Shown here: piece by piece, positions 1-16,196 of the stretch
How positions within the stretch are numbered: the first letter of the stretch is position 1
Layout: the number at the start of each line of letters is the position of its first letter
Source: Candidatus Bipolaricaulota bacterium
GTDB taxonomy: Bacteria > Bipolaricaulota > Bipolaricaulia > UBA7950 > UBA9294
DNA length: 25,902 nucleotides
Reading direction: 5' to 3'
NCBI GenBank assembly: GCA_023132545.1
Contig: JAGLYB010000032.1
Coordinates: forward strand, 1 to 25,902
The notes under the pieces: generated by a model
Seen by the model: only the letters and a program-made list of their open reading frames with translations
Told to the model about the DNA's origin: nothing
The model's database searches: none
Position numbers and translations under genes: made by a program

Positions 1-443
1 ACTGCCAAAGGCTCGATCAGTGCACCGGTTTCAAAGTCCATGCCATCAGGAAGTGGGAACAAATAGCGGGCGGGGACAATGATGAATTCCGCAAGGCATC
101 CATCCATTGTGACCCCCAGCCCTCTGCTGTTCGGACAGATGTTGTCGCGTTCCTCGTTGCAGCGGGAACAAACGCCGCATCCGAAATTCGGGCGCACGGT
201 TACGCGGGTTCCGACTGACCAGTCCTTAACATCGGAACCGATCGCATCGATCACTCCCGCACACTCATGTCCGAGAACAAACGGATACCCGTTGTTTCTC
301 CGCCCAGAGTAGAACTCCATGTCCGTCCCACAGATACCGACAACGTACACGGCAATCCGAACCTCACCCGGCCCAGGTTCGGGCAGCAGGCGGTTGGTCA
401 GGGTCAATCTCTCCGGAGCAACAAGTTGCGCGACTCTCATCAT
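1..443 (-). CDS. Zn-dependent medium-chain dehydrogenase (threonine/sorbitol dehydrogenase-like MDR), 5' part only; runs off the left edge
   Basis: Not in the ORF track; translated by hand from ATG at 443 (or 440): MMRVAQLVAPERL...VGICGTDMEFY...VLGHECAG...NFGCGVCSRCNEERDNICP...GALIEPLAV. Shows the catalytic-Zn motifs GICGTD and GHE, the structural-Zn motif CxxCxxC-x7-C, and the EP motif. Starts 3 nt after the upstream stop. Confidence 0.93.
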   Translation of the reverse strand, partial: MMRVAQLVAPERLTLTNRLLPEPGPGEVRIAVYVVGICGTDMEFYSGRRNNGYPFVLGHECAGVIDAIGSDVKDWSVGTRVTVRPNFGCGVCSRCNEERDNICPNSRGLGVTMDGCLAEFIIVPARYLFPLPDGMDFETGALIEPLA

Positions 444-1791: not shown

Positions 1792-3522
1792 CTAGAACTT
1801 CTTTCGATTGGGTTCGATTTCCCATATGGACTGCATAGCATCTGCACTGATGTCGTACACCACGTTGTGCGGTGGTAGAGGCTCGACGCGCATGAACTCC
1901 GGCACATCGGCCAGCCGGTCTGAGACTCCGGCGGCTACGTTGAACGCGCGCTCTGTCTCCAACGTTGCGGCTGCTTCGTTCGCGATATCGGCAAATGAGA
2001 CGTTCGTGCCGAAACAGCTGTTCACCAACTCTGCAAGTAACTCTGCGTCTTCGACAAGCGGTCCACGCGCAAACAGGCAGAGTCCCGACATATCCAGGAT
2101 CATGGAGCGAATTTGTAGGGCTCTCGAGTTCTCGAGTTGCCCTTCAGCGGAAAGTGGATCGAGTGATCGGGCCGTACCGAATGCATTCCCGGCGGTATGA
2201 TCCGCACCCATCGGAGACGTCGCATACGTAACACCGTTTCCTTTGAGTGCCCGAGGATCGTACCCAGGAATTCCTTGCCCCTTGACTGTCGGCACACGGC
2301 GAACGCCGAGAGCCTGACCGGTAAACGCCGCTCCCTGACCAAGAATTCGTCCCAGGGGTGTCGCTTGTTCGATCTGTCGAAGAAGATCCGCGGCTGCCTC
2401 AACGTCGCCAAACTGGGCTAATCCGGCTTCCATAGCCACGCCAAGTGCACAGCCCATTTCGATTGCATCCAACCCTATGTCGTTGCACAGAGCATTGAGT
2501 TCGGCAATCCCATCCAGCGTGCCAATCCCGCAGTTCGACCCCAGAAGTGCGATGTTCTCGTACTGCAGCGAGGCTACCTTGCGGTGCCCGCCTTCGTCGG
2601 GGAAGACGTTGGAACAGCGGATCACACACCCAGCCATGCACGGCGTTCCAGATCGTCCGTCTCCGCCGCGGGCTGCAATGGTGTCCGCCAAGCACTTGCC
2701 AGTGATTCCATCGATCCCGTCAAACGATCCACTGCTGAAGTTGAGGGTAGGCAGTAGACCCAACTCATTGGATGTCGCAACGATTCCCGCAGTTCCGAAC
2801 TTCCGCCGCCCTTCGATTTTCGGGCTGGCCAGGATTAGTTCGGTGAAGCGGCGGGATGCCTTCTTAAGACAATCGGCATCCGCGCCGGCCTGCGGCGGCG
2901 CTCCCTCATCGTCGATCACGATTGCTTTGATCCCCTTTGATCCCATCACGGCACCGAGACCTCCACGTCCCGCATACCGGATCTGCACGCCAGTGACATC
3001 CGTTGTCGCAATGCCGGAGGCCGTCATGCGTAACTCCCCCGCCGGACCAATCACCAGAAAGCCACATCGCTCGCCGAACTGTTCGCGAAGTATCCCCAAC
3101 GTCTCGCGAACCGAAAGTCGATCCAACGTCAGATCGTCAACCCACGTTGCACCGTTTCGATCAATTCGAAGAACCCGCGAAGCCGGATCATCCGGTGCAT
3201 CTTCGATAATCAATGCTCGGACCCCGGCACGAGCCAGCGTCTGCCCGGCCTCTCCCCCAACGTTCGATTCCTTGATGCCACCGGTGAGCGGACTCTTCCC
3301 CCCAATAGACAGTCGACCACTCGTCGGAATCATTGTTCCACCAAGCCATCCTGGTGCAAAGATTAACTTGTTTCCACGTCCAAGCGGCTCGCACGTAGGA
3401 TCCACTTCGCGGGCCAAGATATTGGCGATTAACTGACGACCTCCCCACAGCGACATCTCGTCTGAAACGGGCGTCTGTTCAATTGCGCACGTTCGCGCGT
3501 TGACTCTCACAACTCGTTGCAT
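1792..3522 (-). CDS. aor: Aldehyde:ferredoxin oxidoreductase family (W/Mo-bispterin, 4Fe-4S)
   Basis: N-domain GKSPLTGGIKESNVGG and AGRGGLGAVMGSKGIKAI; Fe-S ligands CMAGCVIRC plus GLCLF; QYE and DIGLDAI pterin-proximal motifs; GADH; SD GAGGAG. Confidence 0.93.
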   Translation of the reverse strand: MQRVVRVNARTCAIEQTPVSDEMSLWGGRQLIANILAREVDPTCEPLGRGNKLIFAPGWLGGTMIPTSGRLSIGGKSPLTGGIKESNVGGEAGQTLARAGVRALIIEDAPDDPASRVLRIDRNGATWVDDLTLDRLSVRETLGILREQFGERCGFLVIGPAGELRMTASGIATTDVTGVQIRYAGRGGLGAVMGSKGIKAIVIDDEGAPPQAGADADCLKKASRRFTELILASPKIEGRRKFGTAGIVATSNELGLLPTLNFSSGSFDGIDGITGKCLADTIAARGGDGRSGTPCMAGCVIRCSNVFPDEGGHRKVASLQYENIALLGSNCGIGTLDGIAELNALCNDIGLDAIEMGCALGVAMEAGLAQFGDVEAAADLLRQIEQATPLGRILGQGAAFTGQALGVRRVPTVKGQGIPGYDPRALKGNGVTYATSPMGADHTAGNAFGTARSLDPLSAEGQLENSRALQIRSMILDMSGLCLFARGPLVEDAELLAELVNSCFGTNVSFADIANEAAATLETERAFNVAAGVSDRLADVPEFMRVEPLPPHNVVYDISADAMQSIWEIEPNRKKF

Positions 3523-3531
3523 CGATCCTCC

Positions 3532-5484
3532 TCAACCGTCCGTTCCGTCTTCTGTTCGCATCACTGCGCGCCATGCGGCACGCCAGCCTTCATACACCGC
3601 TTCCTGGATTCCCCGCGGGTCACGTGCATCACCCACAACAAACACGGGGAACGGGTCGTCCCTTAGCTCATTCGCTACTGTAAGATTCGATTCGGCTCCA
3701 ATGGCCACCACCACTCGGGTGGCCGGAAGTTCACTCTGTCGGCCGTCCTTCTCGATGAGTACAGTGTCGGATCGGATTTCGATTACACGAACATCGGTAC
3801 GAATTTCGACGTGTCCCTCTTCCAGATGCCGCAAGAGCGCCGCGAGAGAGATTGGCTCGCAGTCCCGTCCCACGTCATTTAGCAATTCGAGAACAGTGAC
3901 CTTGCCACCTCGTTCTGCACAGTAGGATGCGGTCTCGCAGCCGACCAATCCTCCACCAATCACCACGACCGTTTCTCCGGAGACTGAGTCGCAAGAGGCC
4001 AAAGCACGCTCAACCGTCCACACGTGTTTCTGTGAGATGCCGGCTACGGAGAGATGTTTTTGAATTCCTCCGATTGCCAGAATGACTGCATCCGGATGCA
4101 GTTCGCGGATGGTCTCCACCCTGACGTCGATTCCTGTTTTGATCTCTACACTTGCCGGAAGTGACTGGATCATGTCGTCAAGCAACCAGTCGATCTTTTC
4201 CTTGTGCGGCGGAACCTTGGCGTAGCGAAGCTGTCCCCCAAGTTCGGCTTCGCGTTCGAGCAAGACAACCTGCGCTCCAGCGATGGCCGCTGTTGCCGCG
4301 GCCTGCAATCCGCCTGGCCCAGCGCCAACCACAATGACTCGTCTCTCACTGCAGGGTTCGGGGTGTGCTTCCCCCTCGAATCCGACCTCGGGATTGACCG
4401 AACAGCAGATCGGCAGATCGTCAAAAACGCGTCGTTGAACACATCGATTACACGAAATGCAACGGTGGATTGTTGGAGCTTTGTCTGCGGCCGCCTTATT
4501 TGGCCATTGCGGATCAGCAATAAGGCCGCGCCCGATGGCCACGAAGTCCGCTGCCTCTTCAGCCAGCGTATGCTCCACGGTCTCAGGGTTCCGAAAAACA
4601 CCGACTGTAACAACCGGAATGTCCACTGCAGCCTTGATCGTCGCCGCAAGATACGCTCGCCAAGCCTCGGGATAGACCATCGGCTCAAGCTGTTTCTCAG
4701 GATTCGCCGCTGTAGCAGCCGAGATATGCAACGCGTCGATACCGGAGTCAACCAGGGCATGGCACAGCTCAACCGATTCGTCAAGAGCCCTGCCTTCAGG
4801 AAGAAACTCGTCCCCACTTAAACGGAATAACAGTGGATAGTCGCAGCCCACAGTTTGCCTCACTCTTCGTACTACATCGAGGGCAAACCGCCAGCGTTTC
4901 TCCTGAGTCCCTCCGAACGCATCGGTCCGCTGATTTGTAATCGGAGACAGGAACTGTGCAATCAGATATCCGTGTGCCCCATGGATTTCGACGGCATCGA
5001 ATCCAGCTCGCTTGGCCCGCACGGCGGCTCGCGCATAGCAGTCGATGAGACCCTCGATCTCGAATACCTCAAGCGGCACAGGGGGTAGAGCGTTCGCAGT
5101 CCATCCCACATCCGACGGTGCAACTGCGGGCACGCCGGTCCTCTGCGGTTTTGCTACAGCCCCAGCGTGGTTAATCTGAATTGCTACCGCGGCACCGCGC
5201 TCCCGCACAGCCCGCGTCAGCTCGAACAGTCCAGGCACATACCGGTCATGATTGATCCGTAATTGGACGGCTCCGTTGCCTCCTACCGGTTCATCAATTG
5301 ACGCGTTCTCGATGATGATCAATCCAGCCCCGCCTTGGGCACGCGCTGCGTAGTAAGCGATCATTTGAGGCGTAGGTTCACCATGAGCTGACGCGAAGTT
5401 GGTTGCCATCGCCGGCATGACAATGCGGTTTCGTACTTGCAGAGATCCGATGTTGCCCTGCCGGAACATCCGCTTGTCTGACAT
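3532..5484 (-). CDS. NADH:flavin oxidoreductase, OYE TIM barrel plus 4Fe-4S plus FAD/NAD domain (2,4-dienoyl-CoA reductase/BaiCD/enoate reductase architecture)
   Basis: NRIVMPAM, QINHAG, EIHGAHGYLIAQFLSP, GRGLIADP, CISCNRC...CSVNP, VVGAGPGG and VIGGGLVGCE Rossmann motifs. Start at ATG 5484 preferred (5508 in track overlaps livF). Confidence 0.92.
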   Translation of the reverse strand: MSDKRMFRQGNIGSLQVRNRIVMPAMATNFASAHGEPTPQMIAYYAARAQGGAGLIIIENASIDEPVGGNGAVQLRINHDRYVPGLFELTRAVRERGAAVAIQINHAGAVAKPQRTGVPAVAPSDVGWTANALPPVPLEVFEIEGLIDCYARAAVRAKRAGFDAVEIHGAHGYLIAQFLSPITNQRTDAFGGTQEKRWRFALDVVRRVRQTVGCDYPLLFRLSGDEFLPEGRALDESVELCHALVDSGIDALHISAATAANPEKQLEPMVYPEAWRAYLAATIKAAVDIPVVTVGVFRNPETVEHTLAEEAADFVAIGRGLIADPQWPNKAAADKAPTIHRCISCNRCVQRRVFDDLPICCSVNPEVGFEGEAHPEPCSERRVIVVGAGPGGLQAAATAAIAGAQVVLLEREAELGGQLRYAKVPPHKEKIDWLLDDMIQSLPASVEIKTGIDVRVETIRELHPDAVILAIGGIQKHLSVAGISQKHVWTVERALASCDSVSGETVVVIGGGLVGCETASYCAERGGKVTVLELLNDVGRDCEPISLAALLRHLEEGHVEIRTDVRVIEIRSDTVLIEKDGRQSELPATRVVVAIGAESNLTVANELRDDPFPVFVVGDARDPRGIQEAVYEGWRAAWRAVMRTEDGTDG

Positions 5485-5497
5485 CGAGGAAGGCTCT

Positions 5498-6211
5498 CTA
5501 CCCACCAAGGTAGAGGCGCTTCACCTCCTCGTTGTTGCGAATCTCTTCAGCAGGCCCCTCGTACTTGTTGCAGCCCGTCTCTAACACATAGGCATAATCC
5601 GACATCTTGAGACTTCGATCGGCGTTCTGCTCGACAATCAACATCGTGCTGCCTGCACTGCGGATTTCCTCAATCTTGTCAAAGACCTCATTCGCCATGA
5701 TTGGCGAGAGCCCCAATGACGGTTCATCAAGGAACATCAGGCGTGGATTGAGCAGCATCGCGCGGCCCATCTCAAGCGTCTGCATCTCACCACCGCTCAA
5801 GCTTCCGCCCTTTTGCTTGCTGCGTTCGCGAAGGAGAGGGAACAGATCGTACACGCGTTCGAGATCCTTCTGGATCCCCTTGCGATCCTTGCGGATGTAC
5901 GCGCCAAGTTCAAGATTCTCTCGCACCGTCATCAGCGGGAACACATGTCGTCCCTGCGGAACAAATGTAATCCCGAGACGAAGCAGCTCTGCCGGCGAAG
6001 GATTGGTCACGTCTTGACCATCGAATGTGACCGTGCCCTCACGCGCAGGCAGCAGTCCGAACAACACGCGGAATATCGTTGACTTCCCCGCACCGTTGGG
6101 ACCGATGATTGAAACCATCGTTCCCTCTTTCACATCAAGCGAGACCCCATTCAGGATGTCGAGTTCCTTGGAGTACCCGGCCACAATGTTTCTTGCCTTC
6201 AGCAATGCCAC
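5498..6211 (-). CDS. livF: HAAT (branched-chain amino acid-type) ABC transporter ATP-binding protein, LivF family
   Basis: GPNGAGKST Walker A, LSGGEMQ signature, LDEPSLGL, VEQN. Start moved to GTG 6211 (MALLKARNI), 1 nt after the livG stop, with GGAGGG upstream. Confidence 0.95.
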   Translation of the reverse strand: MALLKARNIVAGYSKELDILNGVSLDVKEGTMVSIIGPNGAGKSTIFRVLFGLLPAREGTVTFDGQDVTNPSPAELLRLGITFVPQGRHVFPLMTVRENLELGAYIRKDRKGIQKDLERVYDLFPLLRERSKQKGGSLSGGEMQTLEMGRAMLLNPRLMFLDEPSLGLSPIMANEVFDKIEEIRSAGSTMLIVEQNADRSLKMSDYAYVLETGCNKYEGPAEEIRNNEEVKRLYLGG

Positions 6212-6212
6212 G

Positions 6213-6953
6213 TTACCCTCCAAAGTAGGCCGCCATGACCTGTTCGTTTTTTTGGATCTCGTCTGGGGATCCTTCCGCAATCTTCTTCCCGTAATCGAGG
6301 ACGACGATACGATGGCACAATCCCATCACCATCCGCATGTTGTGTTCGATCACCAGGAAGCTGCACCCACGATCATTCAGCTCGACCAGACGCTCGCAAA
6401 TCTCCCGACCGAGTGTCGCATTCACACCAGCCATCGGTTCGTCGAGCATGATCAGCTTTGGATCGGACATAAGAACCATGCCCAGATCGAGCAGCTTCTG
6501 CTGCCCATACGAGAGATTCTTCGCCACTTCATTCTTGAGGTGAATGATGTTCAGAAACTCCAGAAGCTCGATCGCCCGGCGTACGTCTTTTGATTCGTCG
6601 ATCTGGAACAACCGGCTGAGGATCGTCCCTTCGCTCTCCTGGATCGCCATAACCATGTTGTCGAGCACTGTCATGCCGGGGAATAGCTGGACAAGCTGAA
6701 ACGTTCGCCCTACCCCAAGACGGTAGATATTGTGCGGCTTCATACGCGTAATCCTCTTGCCCATGAAGAACACATCCCCGCCGGAAGGACGTTGGATTCC
6801 AGTCACACAATCGAACAGTGTCGTCTTGCCGGAACCATTCGGGCCGATCAACCCAAGGATCTCGCCTTCTTTGACCTCGAAATCAACACCGCCGACAGCT
6901 TCCAGCTGGTAGAAACTCTTCTTCAACCCTTTGATCTCTAAAATGTTATTCAT
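6213..6953 (-). CDS. livG: HAAT ABC transporter ATP-binding protein, LivG family
   Basis: GPNGSGKTT, RTFQ, LSYGQQK, LDEPMAGVN, IEHNM, C-terminal AAYFG. Confidence 0.95.
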   Translation of the reverse strand: MNNILEIKGLKKSFYQLEAVGGVDFEVKEGEILGLIGPNGSGKTTLFDCVTGIQRPSGGDVFFMGKRITRMKPHNIYRLGVGRTFQLVQLFPGMTVLDNMVMAIQESEGTILSRLFQIDESKDVRRAIELLEFLNIIHLKNEVAKNLSYGQQKLLDLGMVLMSDPKLIMLDEPMAGVNATLGREICERLVELNDRGCSFLVIEHNMRMVMGLCHRIVVLDYGKKIAEGSPDEIQKNEQVMAAYFGG

Positions 6954-6963
6954 CCCATCATCC

Positions 6964-7950
6964 TCACTTTGTCAGTTGCGGGGGATTCCGTTTCAGAACC
7001 CGCCGGAAGAAGACATCTGACAGCCCCGCCAATCCCGTCGGCCAGAAGATCAGAATCACCAGCGTGATTGCGGAGAAGACGACGAAGTACAACTGCTGCG
7101 CTCCACGAAGGAATTGCGGCAGAAGCATTACAACGATCGCTCCGATAAATGCACCTTCGAACCGCCCAGAGCCGCCAATGATCAGCATGATCAAGAACCA
7201 AAATGACTCATGAACGGGGAATGCTGTCGGATCAATGAATTTCATCAGCGGTGCAAGAAGGCCTCCGGCAACGCCGGCATAGGCGGCTCCAATGGCAAAC
7301 GCCAGCAGTTTGTACGCCAGCAAGCTTACACCGACCATCTCCGCCCTCATGTCATTTTCCCGAATCGCCTTGAATGCTCGTCCCCAGCGCGAGTTCAGAA
7401 TCCACAACATCATGATTGTCAGAACGACGAGGAACCCGGCCACCAGGAAGTAGAAGGCAATATTGGATGACAAGTTGATGCCGAAGAAGCTCGGTCGCGG
7501 GATTCCGGGAAGCCCGGAGAAGCCGCCTGTAATCTCGTGTTCATTGGATAAGAACAGGTAGATGACGGTTCCAAATCCAAGAGTCACCAATGCCAAGTAG
7601 TGATGCTTGACACGTAGCGCTGGAAGCCCGAGGATCAACCCAGCCACAAAGGCAATGGATGCACCCAACGGAAGCGCCAGCCAAAACGAGTACCCGTTCA
7701 GGGTCATCAAGGCAACGGTATAGGCTCCAAGCCCCATGAACGCCGCATGCCCAAGCGAGATCTGTCCCGTGTAGCCGATTGTCAGGTTGAGCCCCATGAT
7801 GGTGATGATGTAGACCCCGATGAGGGTCGCAACGTACATATAGTATGAGTTCCCTCCGAAGATTATGGGGATCAGGCCGATGACGCCAAGGAAGATACCC
7901 CAATGCAGCAGCCGCCAGACGATCGGTTTGTTATTCGATCGATTTGCCAT
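6964..7950 (-). CDS. livM: HAAT ABC transporter permease, LivM family
   Basis: GLNLTIGYTGQISLGHAAFMGLGAY, YLALVTLGFG, SRWGRAFKAIRENDMRAEMVGV, GGSG...GAFIGA; multiple TM helices. Confidence 0.95.
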   Translation of the reverse strand: MANRSNNKPIVWRLLHWGIFLGVIGLIPIIFGGNSYYMYVATLIGVYIITIMGLNLTIGYTGQISLGHAAFMGLGAYTVALMTLNGYSFWLALPLGASIAFVAGLILGLPALRVKHHYLALVTLGFGTVIYLFLSNEHEITGGFSGLPGIPRPSFFGINLSSNIAFYFLVAGFLVVLTIMMLWILNSRWGRAFKAIRENDMRAEMVGVSLLAYKLLAFAIGAAYAGVAGGLLAPLMKFIDPTAFPVHESFWFLIMLIIGGSGRFEGAFIGAIVVMLLPQFLRGAQQLYFVVFSAITLVILIFWPTGLAGLSDVFFRRVLKRNPPQLTK

Positions 7951-7952
7951 GG

Positions 7953-8813
7953 TTATCGCTCCTCCGTTCCAAGTAGCCCCTCTTTGCGGATCAGGATCAC
8001 TGCAATGAGGACAACCAAGACCACCAGTTCGCGGTACTCTGTAGAGATGTAAGCAGAGGTAAAGGTCTCAATAACGCCAACAAGGAAACCACCAAGAAGC
8101 GCACCCCGGATCTGGTTGAATCCGCCAATTGTCGCGGAATAGAACGCCTTCAAGCCCAGTTGTGCCCCCATGTCGAACCGCACCATGTACACGGGAGCGA
8201 TGAGCATCGCCGCAAATACCACGATCACGGCATTCATCACAAATACCATCGTGGTTACCGAAGAGATATTGATGCCCAGGATCTTGGCTGCTTCACGATT
8301 CTGCGCCACAGCCTGCATCGCCTTTCCCGGCTTCGTCCGTTGGATAAACAGGTTGATTGCCAAGATGAGCGCGATGGCAATGACGATCGTCCAAACATGC
8401 TGACGCGAGAGAATAATCGAGCCAAATCGGTACGGCGTCATGCCAAAGATCTGTGGAAATGGCTTACACTGCGCGGACCAGAAGGTTGAGATGGAATTGG
8501 ACGCAAGAAAGCTGAGGGCGATTGTCGCAACGATGATTGTGGTGTGGGAACGGTCGATCAGCGGCTGAATGATCCCCCGCTTGACGACGTATCCCAGCAA
8601 CACAGCCGAGATACCGACTGTTACCAACAGCGCTAAGATGAATGGAACGCCAAGGCACACGAGAATAAACATCAGCACTGCGGATACCGTGAGGAAATCT
8701 CCCTGCGCAAAGTTCACGGTTCGCGAGGCCTGCCACAATAGCGTAAACCCGATCGCCACCAGTGCGTAGATCGCTCCAATGGAGATTCCGGAAACAACTA
8801 ATTGGATGAACAT
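7953..8813 (-). CDS. livH: HAAT ABC transporter permease, LivH family
   Basis: GISIGAIYALVAIGFTL, VNFAQG, GKAMQAVAQNREAAKILGI, IGGFNQIRGALLGG. Start ATG 8813 (GTG 8819 also possible); overlaps the aroD 3' end. Confidence 0.95.
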   Translation of the reverse strand: MFIQLVVSGISIGAIYALVAIGFTLLWQASRTVNFAQGDFLTVSAVLMFILVCLGVPFILALLVTVGISAVLLGYVVKRGIIQPLIDRSHTTIIVATIALSFLASNSISTFWSAQCKPFPQIFGMTPYRFGSIILSRQHVWTIVIAIALILAINLFIQRTKPGKAMQAVAQNREAAKILGINISSVTTMVFVMNAVIVVFAAMLIAPVYMVRFDMGAQLGLKAFYSATIGGFNQIRGALLGGFLVGVIETFTSAYISTEYRELVVLVVLIAVILIRKEGLLGTEER

Positions 8814-9544
8814 GTCCACCTCTGTTCCGATATCAAGTCAATCAAATTTCGCGTCTCCTGAATCGTCAATTGGCCAGGAACTGTGCCTGGCTCCACGGCG
8901 CAGTACGTGAACGATGCGCCGAGAATGCATGCCATAGGTCTCGACGGTGCTCCGTGTGCTCCAAGGGCAATCGCCGCAAACGGCACATTGAGAAAGGATC
9001 GCGCGTCAAGCGCAACATTGAGTACAGTCAGAAGGTCTCTATACGACAGCGCGCGGACCGCCAGCTTGATGAGATCAGGTTCAAGAGCGGCCACATCATG
9101 CAATCCTTGCGTGAGATCACCATGACTCGGCGTCTCCTTCATGTTCTCATACCCGATGAGCGCCGGCACGTTGTGCTCCCGTGCTGATCTAAGCAGTTGG
9201 GAACGAAGCTCAGGCTCGGTGAAGAACTCGATGTCCACTGCGGTCGCCCCGGCATGTACTGCTGCCTGTAACCGTTCGATCCGCTCCTCCTCGGTGCCAG
9301 GGAAGAACCCGCCGAATTGCGGTGTTCGGCATGCCACGATGTGCGGAACACCGGCGCGCTGAACCAGCTCCTCTACGGCCTTTGAATCCGCTAGACGGTC
9401 GATGCGAAGCTCAACGATGTCAGCGCCAGCCGACCGAGCACGTTGCACACCCTCAAGCATGCGGTCTACGTTGTCCGCCAACGATGTTGCAACCAAGAGC
9501 GGCGTTGCTCCAACCGTTACCTCCCCGATGGCCACCGTCCTCAT
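8798..9544 (-). CDS. aroD: Type I 3-dehydroquinate dehydratase homologue with His143->Glu substitution
   Basis: DIVELRID, CRTPQFGG, VDIE, DLIKLAV (Schiff-base Lys160), LGAHGAPSR, PGQL. The usual (S/G)YH(N/D) reads GYEN. The symbol denotes the family; canonical activity is doubtful. Confidence 0.88.
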   Translation of the reverse strand: MRTVAIGEVTVGATPLLVATSLADNVDRMLEGVQRARSAGADIVELRIDRLADSKAVEELVQRAGVPHIVACRTPQFGGFFPGTEEERIERLQAAVHAGATAVDIEFFTEPELRSQLLRSAREHNVPALIGYENMKETPSHGDLTQGLHDVAALEPDLIKLAVRALSYRDLLTVLNVALDARSFLNVPFAAIALGAHGAPSRPMACILGASFTYCAVEPGTVPGQLTIQETRNLIDLISEQRWTCSSN

Positions 9545-9966
9545 TATTCGGACGCCTCCTTGGCCAACGACTGTTCATACTTCTCATTGCTGACGATGGA
9601 AACTTCGATGCCCGACCCTTTGATAATCTTCACTGTATGTTTCAAGCGCGGCGGGATGAAGACAGTTGCCGGGCTTTCCACGGTGTACACCTCATCCCCA
9701 AGCGTAACCTCGAACGTAATTCCCGGTTGAGGGAAGACGTAGGCCTGAGACACCTCGTGTGCATGAATCTCTACGTAGTCCGGTCCCGGAGGGTTCTTCA
9801 CATCAATGTGATGAACGAAGATGTTCAGATCCGATCCGGCGACCATGTCGGTGTTGAGAAACGCCATCAGCGGGCCCAGCGTGTCCATGGTTTTGCGGTC
9901 GTGATGAATCAGCGGGCGCTCGGCCCAGTCGAACGGCTTAACGATGTATTTCGAGTACGTGCCCAT
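9544..9966 (-). CDS. Cupin-fold protein, paralogue B (HxH-x3-Q...H)
   Basis: Start moved to ATG 9966 (MGTYSKY; GAAAGGGG upstream). IHAHEVSQAYVF and TVFIPPRLKHTV; stop overlaps the aroD start. Confidence 0.85.
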   Translation of the reverse strand: MGTYSKYIVKPFDWAERPLIHHDRKTMDTLGPLMAFLNTDMVAGSDLNIFVHHIDVKNPPGPDYVEIHAHEVSQAYVFPQPGITFEVTLGDEVYTVESPATVFIPPRLKHTVKIIKGSGIEVSIVSNEKYEQSLAKEASE

Positions 9967-10005
9967 TTTGCCCCTTTCAGTCATGGATTCCGGGTAGCCC
10001 GCGGA

Positions 10006-10401
10006 TCACCCGTAGTACCCCTTGCGGAGAATACAGACCTCGATGCCCTTGCCTTCTATGATCTTCAGGTTGTGTTTGATCCCCGGCGGGATGAAGACGG
10101 TTGCCGGGCTTTCGGCTTGATATGTCTCCTCTCCAAGAATGACCTCGAAACGCAGCCCTGCTTCAGGGAAGACATACGCCTGCGACACGTCGTGGGTGTG
10201 AACCTCAACGTAGTCCGGTCCCTTGTCCCCCTTGACCTCGATGTGATGCACGAAGATGTTGATGTCGGCACCATCAACCATTTCTCGATTGAGAAACGAA
10301 ACCAAAGGTCCCAGTTTCGACAGCCCGTTGGCGTTGTGGAATACCAAATCCCGGTCTTCCCAGTCAAACGGCTTGACGATCAGGTGTTCGTACTTACCCA
10401 T
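10006..10401 (-). CDS. Cupin-fold protein, paralogue A (HxH-x3-Q...H)
   Basis: VHTHDVSQAYVF and TVFIPPGIKHNL; start abuts the aroC stop; 79/131 positions identical to paralogue B without gaps (hand count). Confidence 0.87.
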   Translation of the reverse strand: MGKYEHLIVKPFDWEDRDLVFHNANGLSKLGPLVSFLNREMVDGADINIFVHHIEVKGDKGPDYVEVHTHDVSQAYVFPEAGLRFEVILGEETYQAESPATVFIPPGIKHNLKIIEGKGIEVCILRKGYYG

Positions 10402-11508
10402 CTATGTTTCCTTTCTGTGGCTCTGTGATTTTGCGAGCATTGCGTGATCGATCAGGGTCAAGGCAACCATGGCTTCGGCAATCGGAATCATCCGCGGGAC
10501 GATGGTCGGATCGGTCGCCGTCTTACAGCGGAAGGTCGCCGCTTCCATCCGAACCATGTCCACGGTTTCTTGCTCCGCCCCAATCGTAGGCGTTGGCTTC
10601 ACAGCCATTCGCAGAACAATGTCTTCTCCAGTTGAAATGCCGCCAAGAATCCCCCCGGCATGATTCGTTCGGAACCGTATCGTTCCAGACGATAGGTACG
10701 GCAGGTCGTTGTTCTCGCTGCCAACCATCTTTGCACAGCGGAACCCGGCCCCGATTTCCACGCCCTTGACACTGCCAATGCTCATCAGTGCACGCGCCAA
10801 GTTCGCATCCAATTTGTCAAAGACCGGCTCCCCCCATCCCACTGGGACGTTGTGTGCGATTACCTCGACGATGCCTCCCAGACTCTCTCCTTCGCGTTTC
10901 GCCTGGAGTGCCCGATCCAGCATCCGCTGTGCAGTCTCGGCATCCGGGCAGCGAACCGGTGGTACATCGGCGCCGGCGCGAATTTCTTCATACGACATGT
11001 CCGGTGCCTCGATGCCGGCGAGTGCTTTGGTGTAGGCGATGATCTCTACGTTCATCGAAGCAAGCAGCTTCTTGGCGATGCCTCCCGCAGCAACACGCAT
11101 CGCAGTTTCTCGGCCGTTGGCGCGTCCGTCAGCGACCCAATCACGGTAAGGGCCATGCTTGGCGAAATATGTGTAGGTCGCGTGCCCCGGCTTGATGACA
11201 GTCTTTTCGTCCATATAAGAGGCAATTCGTTCCGGTGTTGCCCATTCGTTGTCAATGATCAACCCAATGGGCGCGCCTGTCGTAAACCCATCTAGGGTTC
11301 CGGATAGAATGCGAACCCGATCCGATTCCACTCGTGGTGTAGCAATCTCGCTCTGCCCCGGCTTACGCCGATCCAGATCATGCTGGATGTCTGCCTCGAC
11401 CAAGGGAAGTCCTGCAGGGACACCATCGACAATGCCGACAAGCGCTGTGCCAAACGCCTCGCCCGACGTTGTTATGCGAAACGCCCGCCCAAACGTGTTC
11501 CCCAACAT
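10402..11508 (-). CDS. aroC: Chorismate synthase homologue with remodelled substrate site
   Basis: MLGNTFG..FRITT.GE, RRKPGQS, PGHA, RET, KLDANLARALMSIGSVKGVEIGAGF, TNHAGGILGGISTG, KPTPTI (flavin-binding motifs intact), but GEAFG, RANGRET and ATDP replace GESHG, RSSARET and RHDP. The symbol denotes the family. Confidence 0.9.
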   Translation of the reverse strand: MLGNTFGRAFRITTSGEAFGTALVGIVDGVPAGLPLVEADIQHDLDRRKPGQSEIATPRVESDRVRILSGTLDGFTTGAPIGLIIDNEWATPERIASYMDEKTVIKPGHATYTYFAKHGPYRDWVADGRANGRETAMRVAAGGIAKKLLASMNVEIIAYTKALAGIEAPDMSYEEIRAGADVPPVRCPDAETAQRMLDRALQAKREGESLGGIVEVIAHNVPVGWGEPVFDKLDANLARALMSIGSVKGVEIGAGFRCAKMVGSENNDLPYLSSGTIRFRTNHAGGILGGISTGEDIVLRMAVKPTPTIGAEQETVDMVRMEAATFRCKTATDPTIVPRMIPIAEAMVALTLIDHAMLAKSQSHRKET

Positions 11509-11517
11509 GGCAACCTC

Positions 11518-12804
11518 CTATTCTTCATGCACCGTCATTCGTGCACCAATTGCCTGCATCGACGACACGAATGTTGGATAGGTAATGCGCACTGATTCCG
11601 CGCTGTTGATCCGCGTTTCTCCCTCGGCAATCAATCCGGCAACAGCAAGAGCCATGATCACACGATGATCATCATGACCATTGACACTAGCGCCGTGAAG
11701 CACGCTTTTACGGATCATGAGACCGTCCGGCTTCTCTTCGATCTTCGCCCCCATCTTCGATAACTCAGCACACATGACGGCAATGCGATCGGTCTCTTTG
11801 ATTCGCGCCATAGCAACGTTCTCCAGCACGGTCTCTCCCTCGCAGCAACAGCCGACAACAGCCAGCATTGGAAGTGCATCCGGTGTGTTCGACAGATCCA
11901 TTCGGATCCCACGAAGAGATTCGCTGCGCTGAATGCGAAGCTCGCTACCACGAATATCAAGCGTTGCCCCCATCTGCCGTAGATACTCAAACACTTGTTT
12001 GTCTCCCTGGCTGTCGTTGAAATCGAGACCTTGAAGAAGGACGTCGGGGTCAGCCGCAAGTATGGCCGCACAACCTGGGAACGTTGCTGATGAGAAATCG
12101 GCAGCAATCGGTCGTTCAAACGGCGTGTACGATTGCGGGCCTATGATCTCAAACTGTGTCAGTGCGTCGTTGGATGTGACCTCGATACCACAGGCACGAA
12201 GCCAGTCCAGCGTCATTCGTACGTAGCCCTTCTCGTTCATCACACCGTCAACATTCAAGCGAATCGTTCCAGTAACCAGCGGCGCAGCTAGCAATAGCGG
12301 AGTGAGGTAAATCGACGTCGTACCGTTCACAGTAGCTTGCCCAGCATGCAATGGGCCGCGAATCGTGATCGGTGCCGTGCCGTCCAGTGATGCCGATTCA
12401 ACAGTTGCTCCCAGTTGCTGAAGAGACTGAAGCAGTGGCCCAAACGGACGTGTACGAATGCTCTCATCACCATCAAGCGTAATGGGGACATCACCCGTCG
12501 CACAGACGGCAATCAGATTGCCGAGCGTGGTGCCTGAATTGCCAACATGGATAGACAGGGAGGACGACGGGAGCCGTCCTCCAGTACCGTCGATGATCCA
12601 CCGATCGTTGCGTTGATCGATCGGTGCACCCAGTTGCCGACAGCAATCGACTGCCGACAGCGTATCTGCAGCATCCAATGGATGAAGGATCTGCGATTGC
12701 CCATCAGCGAGAAACCCCATGATAACGCCGCGAATGGTATGCGACTTCGAAGCCGGGATGCGGATTGACCCGCGAAGCGATGAGCGTTTGACTGCAAGGA
12801 ACAC
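11518..12804 (-). CDS. aroA: EPSP synthase (3-phosphoshikimate 1-carboxyvinyltransferase) homologue with active-site substitutions
   Basis: PASKSHTIR, GNSGTT, RTRP, ADFSSA, PDALP, RIKETDRI, DDHRV; GTG start with GGGGAGG SD. SSQ reads TSI. The symbol denotes the family. Confidence 0.92.
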   Translation of the reverse strand: MFLAVKRSSLRGSIRIPASKSHTIRGVIMGFLADGQSQILHPLDAADTLSAVDCCRQLGAPIDQRNDRWIIDGTGGRLPSSSLSIHVGNSGTTLGNLIAVCATGDVPITLDGDESIRTRPFGPLLQSLQQLGATVESASLDGTAPITIRGPLHAGQATVNGTTSIYLTPLLLAAPLVTGTIRLNVDGVMNEKGYVRMTLDWLRACGIEVTSNDALTQFEIIGPQSYTPFERPIAADFSSATFPGCAAILAADPDVLLQGLDFNDSQGDKQVFEYLRQMGATLDIRGSELRIQRSESLRGIRMDLSNTPDALPMLAVVGCCCEGETVLENVAMARIKETDRIAVMCAELSKMGAKIEEKPDGLMIRKSVLHGASVNGHDDHRVIMALAVAGLIAEGETRINSAESVRITYPTFVSSMQAIGARMTVHEE

Positions 12805-12963: not shown

Positions 12964-14100
12964 CTAGCCGTCTTGTGACGAGATGATCTTGATGATGACC
13001 TGTTCGCCGTTCTCGATCTTCACGAGGAAGAGATTGCGGTCAACAGTTCCATCTTCTCGATACGAGGTGTTGAGGAACACGTTTGGCTCCATCTCCGTCG
13101 TAATCGTGTTTTCGTGGAGCCACGTTCGCACAGCATCCGCATCAAACGCACCGACTGCTTCGATCGCTGTCTTGAGCGTGTATACGGCAACGTATCCCTT
13201 CATCGCATCGTGCGACGGGATTTCGTCGTACAACAGCTGGAACATTGCGGCAAAATCAGCGATCGGCTCGTACTTGTACGACCATGTCGCCGCGCCCATC
13301 ACGCCTTCCATTGCCTCGCCGCCCAATTCAACCGCAAGAGCACTGAGAAGCGGGCTGTATCCAACAACACTCAAATCGACGCCCAGCGTTTTCAGCTGGA
13401 TCATGAACCGCGCATTCTCCTCTTCGTGACCATAGAGGAAGATCGTGTCGGCTCCCATTCCCTGAATTCGAGCGATTTCACCGGCAAAGTCCGCCTGAGC
13501 TGTTTGGATTGCAATCCCTTCGAAGCCTAGACCGAATTCCTCGGCAGCCGCAGACAGAATGTCGCGACCGTCGCTGCCCATCTCATCATTGGTATAAACC
13601 ATGACAATCTGTTCAACACCGAGATCTTCACCCATCCAGCGGACCAGCCACGGGAATACATTCCGGTTAATCGGCGACGTCGCGAACACGTTATAGTTGC
13701 CTTGTTCGTAGATGCTCGTGGACGTCGAGCCGACCATCTGGATGATTCCCGCCTCTTCTACTGTCGCCATGTTGGCGATCGTCGAGGAGCTGTAGATCGT
13801 TCCGAGAATGGCAAATGGTTCCTTGGTGATCGCGTACTGCATCGCGGCTATGGAGATTGCCGGTCGGCTTTCCGTGTCAACGAGGAAGTACTCGATCTGG
13901 CGACCCAATATGCCGCCAGCGTTGTTGATCTCGCTGAATGCTAGCAGGATTCCGTCGCGCCAGTGCGCGCCGTGACTTGCACCATGACCACTCAATTCAC
14001 AGACGATACCAAATTCGACCGGACCTTCATCTTGTGCCATTAGTGTGCCGCTGAAAACCATGACAAGTAGAACGGCAATTAAACCAAATTTTCGGAGCAT
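12964..14100 (-). CDS. HAAT ABC transporter periplasmic substrate-binding protein (LivK/Peripla_BP_6 family)
   Basis: Signal peptide MLRKFGLIAVLLVMVFSGTLMA-QD (no lipobox); GIVCELSG, EINNAGGILGRQIE...DTES, GTIYSSS, ND..G, ADF..EIARI; SD AAGGAGGT. Confidence 0.93.
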   Translation of the reverse strand: MLRKFGLIAVLLVMVFSGTLMAQDEGPVEFGIVCELSGHGASHGAHWRDGILLAFSEINNAGGILGRQIEYFLVDTESRPAISIAAMQYAITKEPFAILGTIYSSSTIANMATVEEAGIIQMVGSTSTSIYEQGNYNVFATSPINRNVFPWLVRWMGEDLGVEQIVMVYTNDEMGSDGRDILSAAAEEFGLGFEGIAIQTAQADFAGEIARIQGMGADTIFLYGHEEENARFMIQLKTLGVDLSVVGYSPLLSALAVELGGEAMEGVMGAATWSYKYEPIADFAAMFQLLYDEIPSHDAMKGYVAVYTLKTAIEAVGAFDADAVRTWLHENTITTEMEPNVFLNTSYREDGTVDRNLFLVKIENGEQVIIKIISSQDG

Positions 14101-14223
14101 CCTTGACCTCCTTGCTCACTCTTTACTCGATGTTCTGCCAGAAAGATCAGCGCGTTTGCTCGTTTACCTCCTTCACGATTTCAAAGTACAGAATGGGAGA
14201 TCGCCACACATAATGGAGCGGGG

Positions 14224-14266
14224 AAAGAAAAAACGAACCGCCACGCTTATGCGTTGACCGTTCGTT
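14224..14266 (-). terminator. Intrinsic terminator inside the operon leader (attenuator candidate)
   Basis: RNA AACGAAC-GGUCA-ACGC-AUAA-GCGU-GGCG-GUUCGUU-UUUUCUUU, between the predicted promoter and the first start codon. Confidence 0.65.
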
Positions 14267-14317
14267 ATCACCATCCGCCCCCAGATCCCTGGAGAGGCCG
14301 TGGCGCCATTTCATCCT

Positions 14318-14334
14318 TTTTGACATAGTCAAAA
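14318..14334. promoter_or_regulatory. Perfect palindrome TTTTGAC-ATA-GTCAAAA, candidate operator
   Basis: 7-3-7 inverted repeat about 22-38 nt downstream of the predicted transcription start. Confidence 0.55.
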
Positions 14335-14362
14335 CGTCATCTATATATTCCACAACAGACAC

Positions 14363-14391
14363 ACCATAGAGGAAAAAAACCGTGCTGTCAA
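14363..14391 (-). promoter_or_regulatory. Sigma70-type promoter of the transporter/aro-like operon
   Basis: TTGACA (14391-14386) - 17 nt - TATGGT (14368-14363); predicted TSS about 14356. Confidence 0.75.
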
Positions 14392-14680
14392 GTCAGATAA
14401 ACTACGGAATCTGATGATGCTGTGGATGAATTCACGTTTTTTGAGGCAAGAAGACAACCTTCAGAAAGCATGTAGCGCACTCAGGAAATTCCGAGGATTC
14501 TCCCCGTGCTACCAGGACCCTCAAAGCACATCGATCAGCGAATTGGCCTTCTCTCTTGAGGACAGACTTAATGGGATAGGCCACAATTTGTACCTTTAAT
14601 GATGCGGGCCGAGCGGTCTTCACGGCCAAAGAACCTAGGGAATCCAAGCCGACTTGGACATTCCTTAACGCATACGACCT

Positions 14681-15343
14681 CTACCCTCGCGGATGGTTTA
14701 TCGCGTGATCATAGACCACCATGTAGCTAGTGGCGGCAACCGGACCAAGAAAAAGCGTGCCGCTGAGGATGGTCACAAGTTCGATGACCCAACCAGGAAT
14801 GCTGGAATCATAGGTTGACATCCAAAGTAAGAAGAACAACACCATGTATGGAATGGCCAGCAAGAAGCCAATACCGAACAGGGTTCCGCGATAACCTCTG
14901 GTGATGCTGGCGCTTTCGCGCATGGCTTCGATGGGTCGTACGGTTCGCGGGCCTTCCTTGGGATCGAGGAAGCGAATCAGTACGAATGAGTACATCAGAG
15001 CGACAATGATGCCGGGGATGACCAAGGCAACAAATCCCAACATGGTCAGAAGATTGAAGAGTAGATAAGCCCCAATGATGGGACCCGCTTGGGACATCCC
15101 TTCAAAGAGCTCCTTGAAGACAACCGGCTCCCTGCGGACAACCTTCAAGGCAAGCAGATACTGACCTGCATGCAATGGGGCAAGAATCATCATCACCATG
15201 ATTTGAAGCCATATCATGGAATCGGGAACCAGTAGACGGATCACTTGCTGGCATGCAAGGATCACCAACCAGGCCCCCAGTAGCAGAGGGAGCCGCCTTG
15301 TGAATGCGTCGAATCCGTCTCGTAATGCCGTCCAAGAAGTCAT
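14681..15343 (-). CDS. Integral membrane protein of unknown function (DUF975-like, by eye)
   Basis: About five hydrophobic helices; ALVIPGIIVALMYSF and AMRESASITRGYR pattern. Start moved to ATG 15343 (GGAGGAGG SD). Confidence 0.75.
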   Translation of the reverse strand: MTSWTALRDGFDAFTRRLPLLLGAWLVILACQQVIRLLVPDSMIWLQIMVMMILAPLHAGQYLLALKVVRREPVVFKELFEGMSQAGPIIGAYLLFNLLTMLGFVALVIPGIIVALMYSFVLIRFLDPKEGPRTVRPIEAMRESASITRGYRGTLFGIGFLLAIPYMVLFFLLWMSTYDSSIPGWVIELVTILSGTLFLGPVAATSYMVVYDHAINHPRG

Positions 15344-15671: not shown

Positions 15672-16196
15672 ATGGCAAAGGTAGCCGATACGCAGTTAAC
15701 CGTTTTCATTGAGAATATCGAGTTCTCCGTTGGAAAGTTGCGGCGGTATTGCGAGGGAGTAAGTGAGGACGAGATGGAATGGACTCCTACTGGGATTCGA
15801 AACTCGTTAGCTTGGATCGTCCGCCACTGCGCCGGCTTGCTCTGGCTTGGCTACGGTCGGATTTCAGGAAACCGTATTCCCGCTAACTTGCGAGGATCCG
15901 GCATTGCTTGGGGCTCAGCCAAGGGCTCCACATACGATGAGACCAAAGAAGAACCGGGAGTTGAAGCGGATGAGTGCGTGGAATACTTAGAGAGCGCATG
16001 GCAAACGCTGAAGGGGTACCTTGTCCAGCATGATCCTTCGTGGGAAGCCAAGATGCTGGTACTGGATCGCAGAGAGCGTAATGCATGGACGTTTCTCTGG
16101 CACAACCTCGGCGACTTCTGCTACCACACGGGGCAAGCAAGTTACCTTAGAAAGCTCCTTGCAGCGGAGCGAAGACGAACACGATCCCGCGGATGA
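15672..16196 (+). CDS. DinB/DUF664-family four-helix metalloprotein
   Basis: NSLAWIVRHCAG and WHNLGDFCYHTGQASYLR motifs; SD GGAGG. Confidence 0.8.
   Translation: MAKVADTQLTVFIENIEFSVGKLRRYCEGVSEDEMEWTPTGIRNSLAWIVRHCAGLLWLGYGRISGNRIPANLRGSGIAWGSAKGSTYDETKEEPGVEADECVEYLESAWQTLKGYLVQHDPSWEAKMLVLDRRERNAWTFLWHNLGDFCYHTGQASYLRKLLAAERRRTRSRG

Follow-up and report, generated by a model that had tools for sequence, protein, structure and literature searches.

The 25,902-nucleotide stretch of DNA analysed here (hereafter the window; contig JAGLYB010000032.1 of the Candidatus Bipolaricaulota bacterium assembly GCA_023132545.1) carries, at positions 11518 to 12804 of the reverse strand, a paralogue of 5-enolpyruvylshikimate 3-phosphate synthase (EPSP synthase, EPSPS; AroA) distinguished by Gly100-Asn101, Ile171, Pro175, Gly199 and Met336. 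We refer to this protein (P0001) and its clade as EPSPS*. Comparison of homologous sequences and loci indicates that the clade is a distinct, conserved and monophyletic paralogue with an altered acceptor side, located in an importer operon in every case examined. We infer that EPSPS* is not a housekeeping AroA. It is probably a neofunctionalised enolpyruvyl transferase whose acceptor, an imported carboxylate resembling shikimate or quinate, is not shikimate 3-phosphate (S3P), and which would act at the entry or activation step of an anaerobic route.

The EPSPS* open reading frame (ORF) has a GTG start and encodes a product of 428 amino acids. This protein matches PF00275 over profile positions 4-416 of 417 (E = 1.5e-102), which places it in the superfamily, and scores 379.4 bits with the TIGR01356 aroA equivalog model (cut-off 287.25). 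As members from all three variant subgroups described below also pass this cut-off, TIGR01356 cannot separate the paralogue from true AroA. The MurA models gave only 89.7-92.2 bits versus cut-offs of 297-393, and EPSPS* thus falls outside MurA. An AlphaFold2 model of EPSPS*, obtained with 38 homologues as input, has a predicted local distance difference test score (pLDDT) of 96.4. It superposes on the closed, ligand-bound E. coli EPSPS (PDB code 1G6S) with a template modelling (TM) score of 0.94 and a root-mean-square deviation of 1.6 Å, and positional equivalences between EPSPS* and the E. coli enzyme are therefore reliable.

Residues are numbered according to E. coli K-12 AroA (NC_000913.3), which was aligned with EPSPS* and 120 database homologues. 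This alignment confirmed all of the retained and changed positions listed in an initial annotation of the window. EPSPS* keeps K22, S23, R27, G96, R124, S170, Y200, D242, D313, K340, E341, R344 and D384-H385-R386, with T97 retained alongside G96, while the changes with respect to E. coli AroA are R100G, P101N, S169T, Q171I, A175P, S197E, P199G, N336M and K411I. The PEP (phosphoenolpyruvate)-binding and catalytic set (K22, G96, R124, D313, E341, R344, H385 and R386) is complete both in EPSPS* and across its clade, and the proposal that the PEP/enolpyruvyl machinery has been kept is borne out. The set of S3P ligands (S23, R27, S169, S170, Q171, S197, N336 and K340) is in contrast incomplete: S23, R27, S170 and K340 are kept, Gln171 is replaced by Ile, and positions 169, 197 and 336 differ. 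Gln171 contacts both S3P and PEP/glyphosate, and Gln171 and Lys411, both PEP/glyphosate-site residues, are replaced in EPSPS*. A loss of phosphate contacts, as had been suggested for the neighbouring AroC homologue, is not visible in EPSPS* given the retention of Ser170 and Lys340. EPSPS* keeps the EPSPS fold, the PEP-binding and enolpyruvyl-transfer residues, and S23 and R27, which hold the acceptor carboxylate.

Approximately 60 homologue clusters at ≥51% identity to EPSPS* have Gly100 and Asn101 throughout and Ile171 in all cases except one (Leu171). None has Gln at position 336, where Met, Val, Ile or Ser is found instead. Since the pattern recurs across this number of clusters, it is not due to chance. 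To separate clade-specific from common changes, 71 variant sequences were compared with 59 sequences of the nearest clade and 32 canonical sequences of the same phylum. The 71 full-length variants span 51-96% identity to the window EPSPS*, with catalytic residues and substitutions constant: Gly100 and Asn101 occur in 100% and Ile171 in 99%. The positions specific to the variant clade are A28G, R100G, x101N, Q171I, A/S175P, P199G and N309S, together with a one-residue insertion near position 193. We take the acceptor site to be lined by residues 27-28, 169-175, 197-200, 309-313 and 336. The clade-specific changes adjoin acceptor-site residues, with position 28 next to R27, 171 and 175 in the same site, 199 next to Y200 and 309 near D313. 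The earlier view of a reshaped acceptor pocket is supported to this extent, but its choice of the residues that matter was wrong or is unproven.

An exhaustive HMMER search yielded 149 EPSPS representatives at the 50% clustering level, and Gln171 is present in 146 of these (98%), in keeping with its description as nearly invariant. The 91 aligned sequences from the nearest Gln171-bearing clade and from the canonical AroA of the phylum have it without exception. Three representatives outside the EPSPS* clade lack Gln171 (P0151, P0164 and P0234, with Ala, Glu and Ser) and may be other altered paralogues. Gly100 and Asn101 occur in none of the 149, although position 100 itself varies widely (R in 81, Y in 31, N in 13, F in 12). 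Position 336 (Q in 50, H in 36, I in 22, V in 15) and positions 197 and 411 vary freely. The next clade, at ~50% identity, consists of metagenome-assembled genome (MAG) sequences labelled Nitrospinae, Bacteroidales, Deltaproteobacteria and Omnitrophica; it has R/Y/N100, Gln171 and Gln336 and shares T/S169, Glu197 and V/I411 with EPSPS*. Alignment against this nearest canonical clade, as the initial annotation had proposed, separated the listed changes into two groups: Q171I and R100G are clade-specific, whereas S169T, S197E and K411I are normal in the nearest Gln171-bearing proteins. On these alignments, the informative signature is Ile171 together with Gly100-Asn101, Pro175 and Gly199, with S169T, S197E, N336M and K411I representing ordinary variation.

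Monophyly of EPSPS* was recovered with a FastTree support of 100 (163 sequences) and with an approximate likelihood ratio test (SH-aLRT) value of 99.9 using IQ-TREE with LG+C20 (62 sequences). Three subgroups can be distinguished by the residue at position 336 (Met336, Val/Ile336 and Ser336). EPSPS* branches from within the Gln171-bearing AroA of other phyla, at a distance from the AroA of the Bipolaricaulota themselves (32-36% identity). The TSIY and TTLG variants are not routine in the housekeeping AroA of the lineage, as all 32 aligned canonical Bipolaricaulota sequences have Arg100 and Gln171 with an S-A/S-Q motif, and the nearest clade has T/S-S-Q. On contig L071, the closest relatives of EPSPS* and of AroC*, the chorismate synthase paralogue encoded next to it, are encoded side by side as aroA and aroC, with aroB in the vicinity. 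Because the nearest relatives of both proteins are paired in this manner, the EPSPS*-AroC* pair is concluded to descend from a housekeeping aroA-aroC pair of another lineage, as opposed to the Bipolaricaulota's own aroA.

The genomic context of EPSPS* differs from that expected for AroA. A survey of 150 Bipolaricaulota genomes, each at least 80% complete, found EPSPS* in 7, canonical aroA in 55, neither in 88 and both in none. In addition, G001-G007, the seven other genomes from the genus of the window, yielded no aroA. Aromatic amino-acid auxotrophy seems common in the phylum, since aroA was not found in these seven or in the 88 genomes. Five EPSPS* carriers (G011, G125, G123, G077 and G118) were inspected for the remainder of the pathway; these are 88-94% complete MAGs, and an absence is to be read as 'not found'. 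None yielded Shikimate_dh_N (aroE), PDT (pheA), DHQ_synthase (aroB), Chorismate_bind (TrpE/PabB/MenF type), CM_2 (AroQ chorismate mutase) or MqnA. An archaeal-type shikimate kinase above the cut-off was not found in the five carriers, nor was a match to the SKI family in G011, the one genome searched for it. In the control genomes G010 and G122, aroE and pheA are found beside canonical aroA, and G122 also has aroB. Five concordant absences are unlikely to be assembly gaps. Neither S3P supply nor chorismate consumers, the pathway context of an AroA, were thus found for EPSPS* in the five carriers.

Contigs carrying nine other loci of the EPSPS* clade, from all three subgroups, were compared with the window. 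The Liv-type importer is a constant partner, with a binding-protein gene beside EPSPS* in 9/9 related loci, and a cupin pair, a type I dehydroquinase paralogue (DHQase*) and a unit of aldehyde:ferredoxin oxidoreductase (AOR), cupin and U32-like protein are present wherever the contig of a type A or type B locus reaches far enough. Type A loci (≥63% identity, Bipolaricaulota) have the gene order of the window as far as each extends, with AroC* and a FadH/BaiCD-type ene-reductase as additions of the Bipolaricaulota version. Type B loci (~52% identity) encode the binding protein, LivHMGF, EPSPS*, two cupins and DHQase*, with a divergent unit of ferredoxin, AOR, cupin and U32-like protein; no AroC and no ene-reductase were found in these loci (L022, L030, L065 and L066). 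In the same four loci, genes for a conserved hydrolase of the creatininase family (PF02633) and a conserved TrmB regulator, both absent from the window operon, lie between the importer/EPSPS* part and the divergent AOR unit. An archaeal origin of type B is probable, as suggested by TrmB, by an archaeal-type shikimate operon on L022 and by a 100% Archaea Atlas cluster for its 132-residue cupin. The L022 shikimate operon (L022:14922-19919) lies ~3.6 kb from the EPSPS* cluster and encodes ASD, a DeoC-type ADH synthase, dehydroquinate synthase II, AroD, AroE and a GHMP-type kinase, without aroA or aroC; no such operon is found beside the other type B loci. A related-locus search with the type B sequence P0055 as query returned only ordinary AroA at 32-34% identity (Acidaminobacter, Fusibacter). 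In the Ser336 subgroup the order is binding protein, EPSPS*, permease. A further arrangement, type C (L070:1-13807), comprises an ene-reductase, a Zn-dependent alcohol dehydrogenase, a small Cys-rich protein, AOR, binding protein and LivHMGF, followed by a GEAYG-type AroC (from the clade most closely related to AroC*), DinB, a divergent EPSPS and a second Zn-dependent alcohol dehydrogenase. The L070 EPSPS keeps Gln171 and has S23Y, R100T and S169I; here a similar operon is built around a different EPSPS lineage.

The sequences of the companion enzymes AroC* and DHQase* are altered in parallel with EPSPS* across the clade. AroC* (10402 to 11508, reverse strand; PF01264, E = 2.8e-116) has the motifs GEAFG, KPGHAT, ADGRANGRET and KTATDP; GEAFG, KPGHAT, ADGRANGRET and TATDP are constant across its clade. 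No AroC homologue other than AroC* was found in any carrier genome tested. The GESHG His and one Arg are already missing from the large 'GESYG' clade formed by the nearest relatives of AroC*. The deviation of AroC noted in the initial annotation is therefore only partly particular to AroC*: the His to Tyr exchange and one Arg loss are shared with the GESYG clade, while Ser to Ala, Tyr to Phe, Arg-Arg to Ala-Thr, R107K and D/E112T are specific. These specific changes remove polar or cationic groups at what we take to be the phosphate leaving-group site. The GESYG clade (P0326-P0399, except that P0328, P0337 and P0371 are GEAYG and P0398 is GESHG) has TRRDP in place of GRHDP, and its member at L071:8001-9122, in the aroA-aroC pair with aroB nearby, looks like a housekeeping chorismate synthase. 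If so, the 'invariant' GESHG His is naturally replaced by Tyr in whole lineages. Other AroC homologues with GGSYQ and a ~60-residue insertion (L068:7289-8608 and L069:7306-8628) pass the aroC equivalog cut-offs and adjoin two EPSPS of the nearest Gln171-bearing clade. DHQase* (8798 to 9544, reverse strand; PF01487, E = 1.3e-39) scores 130 bits with TIGR01093, below the 139-bit aroD cut-off. The Schiff-base Lys is retained, as are the Glu, Arg and Gln that bind dehydroquinate, whereas His143 is replaced by Glu in every member, and a GYEN motif is found clade-wide. On contig L022, DHQase* coexists with a canonical, His-bearing AroD.

The window derives from a 0.97-Mb cold-seep MAG that is 57% complete and in which the sole other PF00275 gene encodes MurA (contig C113). 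EPSPS* forms part of an operon of 15 co-oriented genes, all on the reverse strand, downstream of one promoter-like site. This site is sigma-70-like (14363 to 14391; TTGACA, 17-nt spacer, TATGGT), a consensus match only, at 10 of 12 positions. It is separated from the first gene by a ~260-nt leader (14100-14360); a search of positions 14050-14750 gave no Rfam family match even at E values up to 10, and hence no riboswitch clue to the ligand. A DinB gene lies just upstream of the operon on the forward strand (15672-16196). The first operon gene (12964 to 14100) encodes a Liv/HAAT-type periplasmic substrate-binding protein (Peripla_BP_6, E = 1.4e-55), with generic LivJ/LivK-type proteins as closest solved structures. 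The position of LivJ Glu226, the residue binding the alpha-ammonium group, aligns to Ser/Thr. The missing Glu hints, if weakly, that the ligand is not an ordinary amino acid.

Downstream of EPSPS* and AroC*, two small cupins are encoded that are ~60% identical to each other: cupin 1 (10006 to 10401; 131 residues) has a putative HxH...Q...H metal site, and its paralogue cupin 2 (9544 to 9984; 146 residues) gives a weak Cupin_2 match. The model of cupin 1 is of moderate confidence (pLDDT 72), and the nearest folds are MarH/7EQK cupin epimerase-lyases (TM ~0.55). MarH-type enzymes act on alpha-keto acids, which for cupin 1 provides no more than a lead. Following DHQase*, the importer is completed by LivH-like (7953 to 8819) and LivM-like (6964 to 7950) ATP-binding cassette (ABC) permeases, both matching BPD_transp_2, and by LivG-like (6213 to 6953) and LivF-like (5498 to 6280, longest ORF) ABC ATPases, both matching ABC_tran. 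The true start of the LivF-like gene is probably near 6211, as orthologues have 237 residues. The next gene (3532 to 5508; Oxidored_FMN and Pyr_redox_2) encodes an Fe-S flavoenzyme of the FadH/BaiCD/2-naphthoyl-CoA-reductase type, the ene-reductase, with 6QKG and 1PS9 (2-naphthoyl-CoA reductase and FadH) as best solved structures. BaiCD and bilirubin reductase are the nearest models, the BaiCD score of 464 bits being below the cut-off. The AOR (1792 to 3522; AFOR_N and AFOR_C) is of the tungsten type, with 9MQX, 9G7J and 1AOR as nearest structures. Assignment as a BamB-type benzoyl-CoA reductase was rejected, the 4Z3W match having E = 5e-11 compared to 6e-60 for true AORs. A third cupin (1378 to 1743; 121 residues; Cupin_2, E = 8.6e-17) adjoins AOR in both type A and type B operons. 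The ~305-309-residue U32-like protein (447 to 1376) gives a weak Peptidase_U32 match and has U32-like clusters as Atlas neighbours; its position beside cupin and AOR is likewise conserved in both operon types. A sequence search of solved structures provided nothing useful for the U32-like protein and weak matches only for the cupins. The last gene leaves the window (3 to 443; ADH_N) and encodes the N-terminal part of a Zn-dependent polyol/alcohol dehydrogenase that resembles Tdh, YdjJ and IolM (polyol/inosose dehydrogenases).

DNA near-identical to the window is found in cold-seep metagenomes, and two cold-seep metatranscriptome runs contain contigs with 95-99% identity to the operon. In one run the binding-protein gene (13069-14036) has a word depth of 41-118, compared with 0-3 elsewhere in the operon. 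Short metatranscriptome pieces also map to EPSPS* (11762-11962 and 12565-12695) and AroC* (10796-10993). These are assembled contigs of related strains for which DNA carry-over is possible; the skew towards the binding-protein gene, however, is not what DNA contamination would give.

The scenario we consider probable is that an imported, carboxylate-bearing shikimate- or quinate-like compound would be enolpyruvylated by EPSPS* at a ring hydroxyl using PEP, thereby activating or trapping the substrate on entry. The product would then be handled by DHQase*, the cupin pair and the AOR/cupin/U32-like module, with AroC*, the ene-reductase and the Zn-dehydrogenase also acting on it in the Bipolaricaulota. 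Such an ensemble would constitute an anaerobic dehydration and reduction route. The acceptor is unlikely to be the usual S3P because the kinase that would supply it was not found in carriers. Several observations weigh against this interpretation. EPSPS* keeps Ser170, Lys340 and Thr169, which we take to be ligands of the S3P 3-phosphate, leaving room for a phosphorylated or otherwise anionic acceptor. It scores above the NCBI aroA equivalog cut-off and adjoins AroC and AroD homologues in the manner of a biosynthetic cluster. That no genome of the phylum has both EPSPS* and canonical AroA is what functional replacement would likewise predict, and L022 carries its shikimate operon in the vicinity of EPSPS*. 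Finally, the RNA evidence consists of contigs assembled from related strains at 95-99% identity. The main rival is that EPSPS* is a true 3-phosphoshikimate 1-carboxyvinyltransferase whose active site is atypical, employed in the salvage of imported shikimate, quinate or dehydroquinate to chorismate by way of DHQase*, a dehydrogenase and a kinase that have escaped recognition, EPSPS* and AroC*. The complete catalytic and PEP-binding set together with S23, R27, S170 and K340, the TIGR01356 score (379 versus 287 bits), the superposition on liganded EPSPS, the adjoining AroC and AroD homologues and importer, the mutual exclusion with canonical aroA in the 150 genomes, the proximity to aroD, aroE and aroK on L022 and the Zn-dehydrogenase within the operon are all consistent with such a role. 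We nevertheless consider it unlikely, as shikimate kinase, aroE and aroB were not found in the five 88-94% complete carriers, and neither were TrpE/PabB/MenF-type enzymes, AroQ chorismate mutase, prephenate dehydratase or MqnA. Furthermore, in comparison with its closest, apparently housekeeping relatives, AroC* has specifically lost a Tyr/His, two Arg and a Ser near the leaving-group site, type B operons are without AroC, Gln171 is 98% conserved elsewhere, and AOR, cupins and the U32-like protein, with which EPSPS* is constantly associated, have no part in making chorismate.

EPSPS catalyses a reversible reaction, and EPSPS* could alternatively act as an enol-ether phosphorylase, converting a naturally occurring 1-carboxyvinyl ether and phosphate to PEP and an alcohol, from which a fermenter could gain ATP. 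The full conservation of the PEP site, the location of EPSPS* immediately next to the binding-protein gene, in an importer-linked operon of catabolic appearance, and its hosts, small-genome anaerobes with AOR, would suit a reverse reaction. This is nevertheless improbable: no enolpyruvyl ether abundant in the environment is known to us, the shikimate-type carboxylate ligands that are kept indicate no particular ether and the data give no reaction direction. Even less credible is neutral lineage drift or a decaying, non-catalytic copy: positions 169, 197, 336 and 411 do show ordinary variation, but 71 full-length sequences at 51-96% identity to the window protein keep all catalytic residues as well as the same substitutions, the EPSPS* model is confident, synteny is conserved and transcript fragments exist. 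Returning to enolpyruvylation of an imported acceptor other than S3P, a wider and more tentative extension is that EPSPS*, DHQase* and the Bipolaricaulota AroC* were recruited together into an undescribed anaerobic pathway, in which an imported hydroaromatic or related acid might be activated by PEP enolpyruvylation as opposed to ATP or CoA. The activated acid would be dehydrated, isomerised, reduced and oxidised by the cupins, the ene-reductase and the tungsten AOR, in a pathway that could be shared by Bipolaricaulota and probably archaea. If true, this would represent a new use of carboxyvinyl transfer in catabolism, with possible energy conservation should the step proceed in the direction of PEP. 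In the literature searched, neither such a clade or operon nor a pathway of this composition is described.

As all three variant subgroups pass the equivalog cut-off, annotation pipelines are expected to call EPSPS* aroA, and would similarly call AroC* and DHQase* aroC and aroD. This would wrongly credit Bipolaricaulota and related cold-seep organisms with part of aromatic amino-acid synthesis. Transcription of the operon in cold-seep sediment, with the binding-protein transcript highly represented, points to a substrate used by uncultured anaerobes. EPSPS* also constitutes a natural experiment on Gln171, and could reveal a third physiological acceptor class after S3P and UDP-GlcNAc.

Among known systems, E. 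coli AroA (EC 2.5.1.19; 1G6S) shares the two-domain fold and the catalytic residues with EPSPS*, with an identity of only ~30%, and EPSPS* is without the pathway context of the E. coli enzyme. The housekeeping AroA of the Bipolaricaulota (S-A-Q type) belongs to the same family and phylum as EPSPS*, yet forms a separate deep clade, adjoins aroC, aroE and pheA (plus aroB in G122) and never occurs with EPSPS* in one genome. Closest is the clade of 'T/S-S-Q, Glu197, Gln336' housekeeping AroA (such as that on L071), whose members are 48-53% identical to EPSPS*, similar in fold, length and catalytic set, share T/S169, E197 and V/I411 and are also paired with AroC. Unlike EPSPS*, these have Gln171, R/Y/N100, a hydrophobic residue at 101, S/A175, Pro199 and Gln336, in housekeeping surroundings without importer, AOR or cupins. 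Enolpyruvyl transferases of the same fold with non-shikimate acceptors are exemplified by MurA (UDP-GlcNAc) and NikO (UMP), from which EPSPS* differs in being derived from the AroA branch. A family link to the shikimate-derived ansatrienin/cyclohexanecarboxyl-CoA pathway by way of an EPSPS homologue was dropped after a literature search gave no confirmation of such a homologue. Chemical precedent for the proposed route is provided by the conversion of shikimate to cyclohexanecarboxyl-CoA in Streptomyces, which proceeds through alternating dehydrations and reductions (PMC13304725). The Streptomyces route uses CoA thioesters, a shikimoyl-CoA synthetase and an FAD-dependent dehydratase, whereas the EPSPS* operon is without a CoA ligase; both nevertheless combine dehydration with reduction, the operon encoding dehydratase-like as well as ene-reductase-like enzymes.

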